Shown: piece after piece, positions 55,856-59,154 of the stretch | Position numbering within the stretch: the first letter of the stretch is position 1 | How the letters are laid out: each line of letters starts with the position of its first letter | From: Escherichia coli | GTDB taxonomy: Bacteria > Pseudomonadota > Gammaproteobacteria > Enterobacterales > Enterobacteriaceae | Strand: one strand, 5' to 3' | Length of the DNA: 64,000 bases | Assembly: GCF_003334305.1 (NCBI RefSeq) | Contig: NZ_QOWS01000003.1 | Made by a program: the position numbers and the translations under genes | The notes under the pieces: generated by a model | Seen by the model: the letters and a program-made list of their open reading frames with translations, nothing else | What the model was told of the DNA's origin: nothing | Databases searched by the model: none

Positions 55856-58711
55856 TTACAGCGCGGCGATAACAGCCTGCTGTTCAATCAGCTTCGCTTT
55901 CGCTTCTGCATAGCCTTCCAGCTTTTCACGCTCTTTCGCGATGACCGCTTCCGGTGCGCGGGCGACAAAGCCTTCATTCGCCAGCTTGTTCTCGATACGG
56001 CTGATTTCGCCTTCGATCTTCGCCACTTCTTTCGCCAGACGCGCCAGCTCATCTTCTTTGTTGATGAGGCCAGCCATCGGGATCAGCAGCTCTGCGCCGT
56101 CGATGATCTTAGTAACGGAAACCGGACCTTTGTCATCGGCAGGCAGCACGGTGATGCTTTCCAGACGCGCCAGCGTTTGCAGGAAGCCACGGTTTTCATT
56201 TACGCGACGTTCTGCATCCGCGCTGCAACCACGCAGTAGCAGCTCCAGCGGTTTGCCCGGCGCGATGTTCATTTCTGCACGGATGTTACGTACCGCAACG
56301 ATCGCCTGCTTCAGCCACTCTGTGTCGGCCAGTGCGGCTTCATCAACCTGAGATGCATCGTACTGCGGGAACGGCTGCAGCATGATGGTGTCGGCAGTGA
56401 TACCGCAAAGTACTTTCACACGCTGCCAGATGGTTTCGGTGATGAACGGAATGATCGGATGCGCGAGGCGCAGCAGACCTTCCAGCACGGTCACCAGCGT
56501 ATGGCGAGTACCGCGCAGTTCGGCTTCGGTGCCACCGTTCATTACCGGCTTAGTCAGTTCCAGATACCAGTCACAGAACTGGTTCCAGGTGAACTCATAC
56601 AGAATGCCTGCGGCGATATCGAAGCGGAAGCTGTCCAGCGCTTCGCGGTACGCTTTGATGGTCTGGTTGAACTCCGCCAGAATCCAGCGATCCGCCAGCG
56701 ACAGCGTCATTTCGCCGCCGTTGAAGCCGCAATCCTGACCTTCTGTGTTCATCAGCACAAAGCGGCTGGCGTTCCACAGCTTGTTACAGAAGTTACGGTA
56801 ACCTTCCAGGCGTTTCATATCCCAGTTGATATCGCGACCGGTAGAAGCCAGCGCCGCCAGGGTGAAGCGCAGCGCGTCAGTACCGTGCGGTTCAATACCG
56901 TTCGGGAACTGCTTCTCGGTGCGCTTACGGATTTTGTCCGCCAGCTGTGGCTGCATCATATTGCCGGTGCGTTTTTCCAGCAGTTCTGGCAGCGAAATAC
57001 CGTCAACCATATCCAGTGGGTCAATAACGTTACCCTTGGATTTGGACATCTTCTGGCCTTCGTCGTCACGAATCAGGCCGGTCATGTAAACAGTGTGGAA
57101 CGGCACCTGCGGTTTGCCATTTTCATCTTTGATGAAGTGCATGGTCATCATGATCATGCGGGCAATCCAGAAGAAGATGATGTCGAAACCAGATACCATC
57201 ACGCTGGTTGGGTGGAACTGACGCAGGGCGTCGGTATTTTCCGGCCAGCCAAGGGTAGAGAAGGTCCACAGCGCAGAAGAGAACCAGGTGTCGAGAACGT
57301 CTTCGTCCTGACGCAGGACAACATCAGCACCGAGGTTATTTTCTTTACGCACTTCGTCTTCGTTGCGGCCAACATAAACGTTACCCGCTTCGTCATACCA
57401 TGCCGGGATACGGTGACCCCACCACAACTGACGAGAGATACACCAGTCCTGAATATCGCGCATCCAGGAGAAGTACATGTTTTCGTACTGCTTCGGTACG
57501 AACTGAATGTCGCCGTTCTCAACCGCTTCAACTGCCGGTTTCGCCAGGACATCGGCACGCACGTACCACTGGTCGGTCAGCATCGGTTCGATGACCACGC
57601 CACCACGGTCGCCATAAGGAACGGTCAGGTCATGTGGTTTAATTTCTTCCAGCAGGCCGAGTGCGTCAACCGCAGCAACGACCGCTTTACGTGCAGCAAA
57701 ACGCTCCAGTTTCTGGAATTCTGCGGGGATCTCGCTGGAATAAACGTCAGATTCGTTACCTTTGGTATCGAACACCTGGGCACTTTCACGGATATCGCCG
57801 TCAAAGGTCAGGATGTTGATCATCGGCAGGGCGTGACGTTTACCGACTTCATAGTCGTTAAAGTCGTGCGCCGGGGTGATCTTCACGCAGCCGGTGCCTT
57901 TTTCCATGTCGGCGTGTTCGTCGCCAACGATCGGAATACGACGGTTAACCAGCGGCAGAATGACATATTTGCCAATCAGATCTTTGTAACGCGGATCTTC
58001 CGGGTTAACGGCCACGCCGGTATCGCCCAGCAGGGTTTCCGGACGAGTAGTCGCAACCACCAGATAATCTTTACCATCTGCGGTTTTCGCGCCGTCAGCC
58101 AGCGGATAGCGGATGTGCCACATCGAACCTTTCGATTCGCGGTTTTCCACTTCCAGGTCAGAGATAGCGGTGCGCAGTTTCGGATCCCAGTTTACCAGGC
58201 GTTTGCCACGGTAAATCAGGTCTTCTTTATACAGACGAACGAAAACTTCTTTCACCGCATTGGACAGGCCTTCGTCCATGGTGAAGCGTTCACGCTCCCA
58301 GTCCACGGAGTTGCCGAGACGGCGCATCTGACGGGTAATGGTGCCGCCGGATTCCGCTTTCCATTCCCAGATTTTGTCGATGAAAGCTTCGCGGCCGTAG
58401 TCGTGACGGGTTTTACCTTCTTCTGCGGCAATCTTGCGCTCAACGACCATCTGGGTAGCGATCCCTGCGTGGTCAGTACCGACCTGCCACAGGGTGTTTT
58501 TGCCCTGCATGCGCTGATAGCGGATCATGGTATCCATGATGGTTTGCTGGAAGGCGTGACCCATATGCAAACTGCCGGTGACGTTCGGCGGCGGGATCAT
58601 GATGCAGAAACTTTCCTGGCTTTCATCGCCATTAGGCTTAAAGTAGCCCTGCTTTTCCCAGTGCTCGTAAAGCGGCTGTTCGATATCTTGTGGGTTATAT
58701 GTCTTTTCCAT
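55856..58711 (-). CDS. valS: valine--tRNA ligase
   Basis: 951-aa class I aminoacyl-tRNA synthetase with HMGH and KMSKS motifs. Confidence 0.97.
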
Positions 58712-59154
58712 TATTTCCAGGTTGCCGTATTCAGGTTGAAACCAGCCACGCGGTAGGCTTTATAGCGTTCGCGCGCCAGTTGTTTCAGAGAATCTTCATA
58801 AGGAACGAAGTCTACCACTTCTGTGAAAGCGGTGGCAAAATCTGCAAAGCTTGTTCGCAGACTAATCAATATATCGCGCGGGCTGCTGCTGCGTTTTTGC
58901 GGCCAGGCGATCTCCACCGGCGCACCGCCGCGCGGTCCTTCTCCCGCTAAATTATGCGGAACAAAGCTTTCTGCCGGACGCGCCCACAGGGCTTCATCCA
59001 GCCGGTAAGCCTGCTTTTCATCTTCACAGGCGATGAGCACGCGCTTACCACTGCGCCAACGTTCTGCGGCAATTTCACACACCAGCTGCTCAACGGCGCT
59101 TAAGCCATCGACGGTGGTGTCATTGTCCAGAAGGTAGAACGTCGCGTTTTTCAT
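58711..59154 (-). CDS. holC: DNA polymerase III chi subunit
   Basis: Protein [25 protein letters not shown]... (147 aa); stop TAA overlaps the valS ATG by 1 nt; ORF-track start 59193 is an upstream extension. Confidence 0.95.

Follow-up and report, generated by a model that had tools for sequence, protein, structure and literature searches.

The one-base holC/valS overlap in Escherichia coli: an apparently derived junction that is probably not the main driver of valS expression

In Escherichia coli, the gene for a low-abundance replisome accessory subunit (holC) directly precedes the gene for a highly expressed aminoacyl-tRNA synthetase (valS), and the former's stop codon shares one base with the start codon of the latter. 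Does this overlap couple the translation of the two genes? An earlier note on the 64,000-nucleotide stretch of DNA analysed here (the window) took translational coupling to be implied by the overlap, and listed lptF/lptG and tamA/tamB as further cases of the same arrangement. We examined the junction itself, its distribution among relatives and published expression data (features in Table 1).

The minus strand at the junction reads TGG AAA TAA TG, followed by gaa aag. The one-base overlap of the holC stop and the valS start is confirmed from the sequence, from the program-made list of open reading frames (58711..59193 (-) for the holC frame and 55856..58711 (-) for valS), from RefSeq and from MG1655. 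The RefSeq annotation was checked via an E. coli strain that is 100% identical over 1101 nt (window positions 58300-59400), where the one-base overlap is annotated as well (its locus position 5412 corresponds to 58711 in the window). In MG1655, valS (4480982..4483837) and holC (4483837..4484280) also have one base in common. Both products score above the NCBIfam equivalog cut-offs (HolC against NF004345, 338.7 bits with a cut-off of 281, spanning residues 1-147 of 147; ValS against TIGR00422, 1303.8 bits). We found no alternative valS start that removes the overlap: a TAA lies 16 codons upstream in the valS frame without ATG, GTG or TTG in between, the next start downstream is codon 38, and the N-terminus MEKTYNP is common to more than 100 species. 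A 61-mer spanning the junction was found in 5426 of 5426 complete E. coli genomes and is identical in 4240 of them.

Table 1. Coordinates of the overlaps and associated features in the window
Feature	Position	Strand	Details
TAATG junction	58709..58713	-	holC stop TAA 58713-58711 and valS ATG 58711-58709; common base 58711
holC, DNA polymerase III chi subunit, 147 aa	58711..59154	-	RefSeq annotation; NCBIfam NF004345
valS, valine--tRNA ligase, 951 aa	55856..58711	-	RefSeq annotation; TIGR00422
Last ~25 nt of holC, valS translation-initiation region	58712..58736	-	A-rich; weak Shine-Dalgarno match (UGGA)
41-nt block inside holC	58808..58848	-	mainly codons 103-115; -137..-97 from valS ATG
Sigma-70-like match	-35 TTGCCA 58838-58833; -10 TAGACT 58814-58809	-	18-nt spacer with TGn
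lptF stop TGA / lptG start ATG (TGATG)	62164..62168	+	shared base 62166
tamB start ATG / tamA stop TGA (ATGA)	19611..19614	+	4-nt overlap

The pentamer TAATG occurs 148 times in the window when both strands are counted, so only its stop/start context counts. In that context, the pair fits the -1 nt class of stop/start overlaps (TAATG/TGATG), both genes being genuine and co-directional. In the annotated equivalent of the window, 5 of 30 co-directional neighbour pairs overlap, with 1 nt in common in two of them and 4 nt in another. The holC/valS overlap is thus an ordinary compact junction of the commonest class, already annotated in all RefSeq E. coli.

The two other overlaps are also real at the positions that the earlier note gave. 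At lptF/lptG, GTGTGATGC comprises the TGA (62164-62166) and the ATG (62166-62168), and an alternative lptG start, GTG at 62163, would leave an overlap of 4 nt. Both pairs are like holC-valS in overlap class (-1 and -4 nt) and unlike it in what they encode: LptF and LptG (LptB2FG) and TamA and TamB (TamA-TamB) are partners within one complex, a typical setting for coupling. Moreover, lptG has a strong Shine-Dalgarno sequence (AAGGAG, 7 nt upstream; anti-Shine-Dalgarno duplex -8.0 kcal/mol). Complex partnership and the strong lptG Shine-Dalgarno sequence match the usual profile of coupled pairs (PMC10666635). The relative-translation comparison below covers holC/valS, lptF/lptG and tamA/tamB being absent from the Burkhardt dataset.

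We compared the junction across a sample of at least 120 loci, from which Salmonella and Klebsiella pneumoniae are absent. A HolC homologue lies upstream of valS in all sampled taxa, with or without the overlap. The -1 overlap is limited in this sample to the core Enterobacteriaceae, where it was found in 14 taxa besides E. coli with an almost identical junction. The genes are separated by a gap of +5 or +6 in Mangrovibacter, Siccibacter, Pantoea, Erwinia and Rosenbergiella, of +13 to +28 in Budvicia, Acerihabitans, Hafnia, Edwardsiella, Plesiomonas and Photobacterium, and of +94 to +207 in Vibrio. At the level of sequence comparison, this distribution shows the overlap as a derived state. It would have arisen in the common ancestor of Escherichia, Citrobacter, Enterobacter, Kluyvera and their relatives (the core Enterobacteriaceae), probably by loss of about 21 nt comprising five C-terminal HolC codons and the 5-6-nt spacer. 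As to conservation across the Enterobacteriaceae, proposed earlier as a check on coupling, the overlap is kept in the sampled core Enterobacteriaceae but is absent beyond them, though the gene order persists.

Termination-reinitiation works best at a spacing of about -4 to +3 nt (PMC12548453), a range that includes the -1 nt of holC/valS. Four of five tested overlapping E. coli pairs are strictly coupled, and an intragenic Shine-Dalgarno sequence upstream of the restart codon was important in four of five pairs, while not being strictly needed in every pair (PMC6728339). The E. coli bioBF pair overlaps, yet ribosomes start de novo on its second gene (PMC6728339), and relative translation varies as much among overlapping as among non-overlapping pairs (PMC5318159). 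An overlap alone does not imply coupling.

Ribosome profiling, another of the checks proposed, is available from published data. Ribosome density is 691.45 on valS and 41.96 on holC, a ratio of 16.5, with 2.6-fold more valS mRNA (583.3 against 221.4) and a 6.3-fold higher translation efficiency (1.185 against 0.189), all from a single laboratory and a single growth condition (PMC5318159 Supplementary file 1). The mass fraction of HolC is about 1.5-3e-5 in the Mori 2021 proteome tables. From the density ratio we infer that at most about 6% (1/16.5) of ValS comes from ribosomes that have just left holC; the ribosome flux on valS exceeds what holC could supply by termination-reinitiation. The excess of valS mRNA could stem from processing or differential stability. 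No terminator-like site was found between holC and valS in a sequence scan of 1.1 kb, and full-text literature searching returned nothing of relevance to a coupling of holC with valS or to a promoter of valS. Of the proposed coupling, the part that stands is that a -1 nt spacing suits reinitiation, so that some coupling may occur on bicistronic transcripts, while the density ratio argues against this as the main route. As an interpretation of the pair as a whole, coupling is weakly supported.

The region from which valS is initiated, the last 25 or so nucleotides of holC, is nearly invariant in the alignment of overlap-bearing taxa, with 5 of 7 synonymous-capable codons unchanged against 13 of 85 elsewhere (p = 0.003). 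The best anti-Shine-Dalgarno duplex of valS is a weak match (-3.3 kcal/mol). The published value is -1.68, and the start region from -20 to +40 has a low DMS Gini index of 0.244, and is thus unstructured in vivo (PMC5318159 Supplementary file 1). When the putative 91-nt leader was folded as RNA together with 40 nt of valS, the predicted structure was not significant (z = -0.86). On this leader fold, a model in which coupling works by unmasking a structured start is unsupported.

Farther upstream, a 41-nt block inside holC is virtually invariant in an alignment of 15 Enterobacteriaceae, synonymous sites included: of its 10 degenerate codons whose amino acid is invariant, 9 are unchanged, compared with 13 of 85 elsewhere (Fisher p = 3.7e-6). 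It spans a sigma-70-like match (9 of 12 hexamer positions, TG present) that is the sole match in the 1.1 kb scanned, where 1.0 was expected, so the match alone is at chance level. From the motif position, valS transcription is predicted to start near 58802. TTGCCA-N18-TAGACT is kept in Enterobacterales without the overlap, 12-35 nt farther from the ATG (Erwinia, Budvicia, Hafnia and Edwardsiella), and the -10 part, GTGGTAGACTTCGT, is still recognisable in Vibrio and Photobacterium. This conservation suggests that the block is a putative internal valS promoter predating the overlap. The block also encodes a conserved 15-residue peptide, so the synonymous constraint could instead come, for instance, from the structure of the mRNA, from a binding site or from selection at the codon level. 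In the shallow 454-based set of transcription start sites of Mendoza-Vargas 2009, only holC -200 and valS +526 are present and none at the predicted start, and the entries listed from the Ettwiller 2016 data hold no match for it. An Rfam scan of 58400-59400 gave nothing at the junction. In the spacer between pepA and holC, the same scan gave whalefall-1 matches on a palindrome, all below threshold.

Transcription starts of valS were reportedly mapped by Heck and Hatfield in 1988 (J Biol Chem 263:857), and the element may already be described in that promoter mapping. We lean slightly towards the view that 58808-58848 is a dual-use coding and promoter element that has driven valS apart from holC since before the Enterobacterales diversified, constraining the sequence of the C-terminal region of chi, and that the overlap is a later accident of the 21-nt deletion.

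For the locus as a whole, the reading that we consider likely is a genuine derived overlap that is not the main driver of valS. Most ValS would come from ribosomes initiating de novo at the unstructured, A-rich start region with its weak Shine-Dalgarno match. The putative sigma-70 extended -10 promoter, which occupies holC codons 106-114 some 90 nt ahead of the valS ATG, would probably be the starting point for much of the valS mRNA. Where a transcript carries both genes, ribosomes that finish at the holC stop may restart at the valS ATG, a coupled share amounting to no more than about 6% of ValS.

The junction could be taken to mean that practically all translation of valS comes from ribosomes finishing at the holC TAA, with ValS output tied to chi. 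The spacing within the optimal range and the strict coupling in most of the tested overlapping pairs speak for this, and a weak Shine-Dalgarno sequence would suit a start that needs ribosomes delivered to it. It is nevertheless extremely improbable: a 1:1 hand-over cannot yield a 16.5-fold density ratio, valS mRNA is 2.6-fold above holC mRNA, and most taxa retaining the gene order lack the overlap. Furthermore, HolC and ValS are not known to be complex partners and are required at very different levels. A weaker form, in which most ValS is made independently and the junction fine-tunes holC or valS in a physiologically meaningful way, seems unlikely rather than extreme, and that judgement covers jointly its two routes, namely that, on full-length holC-valS transcripts, holC translation opens the valS start or delivers ribosomes to it, or that the holC stop is masked by frequent initiation complexes on valS. 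It would account for the near invariance of the junction, along with the final 25 nt of holC, in 15 taxa, at synonymous sites too, and for the retention of the overlap in all sampled members of the clade and in every complete E. coli genome. However, the valS ribosome-binding region alone predicts equal conservation, the leader offers no significant structure to unfold, the start region lacks structure in vivo, and relatives cope with gaps of 5-200 nt.

The opposite alternative dispenses with the internal promoter. Under neutral compaction, a deletion left the overlap as a harmless by-product, all transcription of valS begins at promoters upstream of holC, and valS mRNA reaches its higher level through processing and the greater stability of a well-translated segment. 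The chance-level promoter match and the lack of a transcription start at the predicted position in the shallow sets examined are in keeping with this, and well-translated mRNAs are generally more stable. What it fails to explain is why 9 of 10 synonymous-capable codons over the -35, spacer and -10 are frozen in 15 taxa where other synonymous sites are near saturation, and why Erwinia, Budvicia, Hafnia and Edwardsiella still have both hexamers at a spacing of 18 nt. We therefore regard it as improbable, a little more so than fine-tuning at the junction, and retain mostly de novo initiation with a probable internal promoter as the preferred reading.

Known systems offer a parallel for each part of the argument. 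The promoters of infC lie inside the coding sequence of its upstream neighbour thrS and have been mapped experimentally. The proposed holC-valS arrangement is similar in that a translation housekeeping gene would be partly driven from within its upstream neighbour, with uncoupled expression levels, and differs in that the holC-internal promoter is proposed from a consensus match and synonymous-site conservation. TrpB and TrpA belong to a single enzyme as its subunits and are produced equally from co-transcribed genes, whereas holC and valS have no functional relation and the synthesis of ValS is 16.5 times that of HolC. In geometry, trpB-trpA of the E. coli trp operon, the classic case of coupling (TGATG), has the same -1 nt, co-directional arrangement as holC-valS (PMC12548453, PMC5318159). 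The bioB-bioF pair combines an overlap with a de novo downstream start, as the ratios imply for most valS translation; Huber et al. 2019 (PMC6728339) established its independence with a reporter carrying a premature stop, whereas that of holC-valS is deduced from ribosome-density ratios only.

As a discovery the overlap is of little importance, being present in every RefSeq E. coli annotation. Its value is methodological, in that finding a stop/start overlap in a sequence does not amount to evidence that expression is coupled. For holC and valS, the data favour uncoupled expression, through de novo initiation and probably a promoter inside holC, and the promoter-like block would be a tidy example of a regulatory sequence constraining the synonymous sites of an upstream gene.

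The holC stop codon and the valS start codon share one base (TAATG). This overlap, reported in the earlier note, is borne out by the sequence (minus strand, ...AAC CTG... ACC TGG AAA TAA TGG AAA AGA CA), and the same arrangement is annotated in RefSeq for a strain 100% identical over the matched stretch and for MG1655 (valS 4480982..4483837, holC 4483837..4484280). The site is chromosomal in E. coli: a 1.1-kb query around the junction matches 5426 of 5426 complete genomes, at least eight of them at 100% identity. HolC (NF004345, 338.7 bits) and ValS (TIGR00422, 1303.8 bits) both score above the curated NCBIfam equivalog thresholds. 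We found no alternative start in the valS frame that would abolish the overlap: the frame is closed by a TAA 16 codons upstream, no ATG, GTG or TTG stands between it and the annotated ATG, and the next possible start downstream is codon 38. ValS of over 100 species, spread across several phyla, shares the N-terminus MEKTYNP. These first seven residues are unusually conserved for a housekeeping enzyme and recur, codon pattern included, in Clostridia, Patescibacteria, Bacteroidota and Gammaproteobacteria (comparison loci L014, L015, L035, L048 and others).

Of the 30 co-directional neighbour pairs annotated in the region equivalent to the 64-kb stretch, 5 overlap, among them lptF/lptG and tamA/tamB, which the earlier note had cited as parallels and which are both real. 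The holC/valS overlap is not unusual; it is of a common kind and already annotated. Among prokaryotes in general, no motifs are more enriched than the -4 and -1 spacings (PMC12548453). An alternative in-frame lptG start, GTG at 62163 (GTGTGATG; region 62163-62168), would replace the annotated TGATG with a 4-nt GTGA overlap. A convergent 11-nt overlap of ytfJ and cysQ was seen in the equivalent region of strain FORC_069 (L123), which also carries IS621 and IS609 copies. In the window, tamA (about 17881) is offset by ~1.8 kb from the position expected from FORC_069, so the two strains differ by an insertion or deletion.

Coordinates of junctions, overlaps and neighbouring elements (window positions unless a locus is named)
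Feature	Position	Strand	Remark
holC stop TAA	58713-58711	minus	sequence, mechanical ORF list, RefSeq annotation
valS start ATG	58711-58709	minus	sequence, mechanical ORF list, RefSeq annotation; overlap with holC 1 nt
lptF/lptG overlap (TGATG)	62166 (shared base)		1 nt
tamA/tamB overlap (ATGA)	19611-19614		4 nt
ytfT/yjfF and chpS/chpB overlaps	3550-5554 and 9256-9851 of FORC_069 region L123		14 nt and 7 nt
41-nt block inside holC	58808-58848 (-137 to -97 from valS ATG)	minus	invariant at synonymous sites in 15 Enterobacteriaceae
Nested palindromes, pepA-holC spacer	59195-59276		
Palindrome CCCTCTCCC-TAA-GGGAGAGGG	59243-59263		flanks ACCCTCACCCTAA / TTAGGGTGAGG
ytgA and ytgB, pepA-lptF divergent intergenic region	L001 7654-7704; L124 12044-12156		tiny annotated ORFs; ytgA 17 codons including stop; ytgB in MG1655

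The pepA-holC spacer measures 133 nt in the window and 159 nt in MG1655. Its palindromes gave only sub-threshold "whalefall-1" matches, on both strands, in an Rfam scan; they lack a T-tract and thus are not a canonical terminator, and are probably a repetitive palindromic element.

The overlap is fixed within E. coli, where a 61-mer around the junction is present in 5426 of 5426 genomes and identical in 4240. For other species, we searched a single genome of each for the valS start (pattern ATGGARAARACNTAYAAYCC), which returned at least 120 loci, 112 of those listed scoring above a ValS threshold; the pattern covers just the opening 20 nt of valS and so leaves the upstream sequence unbiased. 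Among the loci listed, a HolC homologue lies immediately upstream of valS throughout Enterobacterales, Vibrionales, Shewanella, Psychromonas and several further Gammaproteobacteria, with variable spacing. The -1 spacing occurs, with a near-identical junction, in at least 14 sampled taxa of one clade (Escherichia albertii, Citrobacter werkmanii, Enterobacter cloacae, Leclercia, Kluyvera, Pluralibacter, Pseudescherichia, Pseudocitrobacter and Superficieibacter, the rest being isolates or MAGs labelled Escherichia, Enterobacter or Proteobacteria), but gaps occur elsewhere: +5/+6 nt in Mangrovibacter, Siccibacter, Pantoea, Erwinia, Rosenbergiella and three misnamed "Enterobacter/Klebsiella sp.", +13 to +28 nt in Budvicia, Acerihabitans, Plesiomonas, Edwardsiella, Hafnia and Photobacterium, and +94 to +207 nt in Vibrio. 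The junction GACATAGCAGA-ATG is common to Erwiniaceae, Mangrovibacter and Siccibacter, which indicates that the spaced arrangement is ancestral and the overlap derived. HolC of the Escherichia/Citrobacter/Enterobacter clade ends in ...NTATWK, five residues shorter than in Mangrovibacter (...TTATPSVPGTT), Siccibacter and Erwinia (window 58711-58730 against L057, L088, L104 and others). The ~21 nt missing relative to the spaced taxa correspond to these five C-terminal codons plus the spacer, and their loss probably created the overlap.

The earlier note took the overlap to imply translational coupling. The evidence bears this claim out only in part: an overlap allows for coupling without being diagnostic of it. 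When five native E. coli pairs with overlaps were tested with premature-stop reporters, four proved coupled and bioBF was initiated de novo (PMC6728339), and genome-wide, relative translation is as variable in overlapping as in non-overlapping pairs (PMC5318159). Published profiling values (PMC5318159 Supplementary file 1) give valS a ribosome density of 691.45, mRNA of 583.3, translation efficiency of 1.185, aSD of -1.68 and ORF distance of 0, and holC 41.96, 221.4, 0.189 and -1.88, with an mRNA Gini of 0.391. Since synthesis rate scales in proportion with ribosome density, ValS output is ~16.5 times that of HolC. Even if all ribosomes finishing holC restarted on valS they would yield only ~6% of ValS, and the remainder must come from ribosomes that had not translated holC. 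Strict coupling is highly improbable, being excluded by this ratio. By geometry the junction belongs to the same -1 class as trpB-trpA, but a defining expectation of termination-reinitiation pairs is that the flux on the downstream gene stays within what the upstream gene delivers, and holC-valS fails it; with flux exceeding the upstream supply, it resembles bioB-bioF, an overlap without coupling. The valS Shine-Dalgarno match is weak by our own calculation (-3.3 kcal/mol, against -8.0 for lptG, -7.3 for pepA and -4.7 for tamB), DMS data place the start region among those with less structure in vivo (Gini of 0.244 at -20..+40; PMC5318159 Supplementary file 1), and no significant structure was found on folding the predicted valS leader (z = -0.86), so an upstream ribosome would have nothing to unmask. 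The pairs lptF/lptG (strong AAGGAG, partners in one complex) and tamA/tamB are better candidates for the classical coupled profile. It is unlikely that the junction causes coupling or interference that is minor yet functional; we favour de novo initiation of valS, with reinitiation after holC contributing a few per cent of ValS at most.

Besides translation, valS mRNA exceeds holC mRNA 2.6-fold (PMC5318159 Supplementary file 1). We aligned holC across the 15 taxa that have the overlap and found its synonymous sites close to saturated along most of its length: of 67 amino-acid-invariant degenerate codons in codons 1-100, only 7 are unchanged. Codons 102-114, spanning the 41-nt block (TTTGCAGATTTTGCCACCGCTTTCACAGAAGTG[G/A]TAGACTT), have 9 of 10 such codons unchanged versus 13 of 85 elsewhere (Fisher p = 3.7e-6). 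The last nine codons are also conserved (5/7, p = 0.003), as expected of the valS ribosome-binding region. The block coincides exactly with the sole sigma-70-like match of a consensus scan over 1.1 kb (TTGCCA, 18 nt, TGnTAGACT), although a single such match is by itself at chance frequency. Mangrovibacter, Siccibacter, Erwinia, Rosenbergiella, Budvicia, Edwardsiella and Hafnia keep the same hexamers and spacing 12-35 nt farther from the ATG. Even Vibrio and Photobacterium have a recognisable GTGGTAGACTTCGT, and the motif is partly retained in Vibrio. The block thus probably holds an internal valS promoter, predicted from sequence, which best explains the frozen sites together with the mRNA excess. 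Pure neutral compaction without such a promoter is very unlikely, leaving the frozen sites unexplained.

The predicted start near 58802 would give valS a leader of ~90 nt. Heck and Hatfield reportedly mapped valS transcription in 1988. In thrS-infC, promoters of the downstream gene lie inside the upstream coding sequence, and holC-valS is alike in its putative promoter. Transcripts from this predicted holC-internal promoter would lack the holC start, making the overlap irrelevant for them. Most likely, valS is transcribed largely from within holC. The overlap is probably a by-product of a small deletion, tolerated because the valS initiation region stayed functional. The deeply conserved promoter-like element inside holC is one modestly interesting by-product of this analysis.
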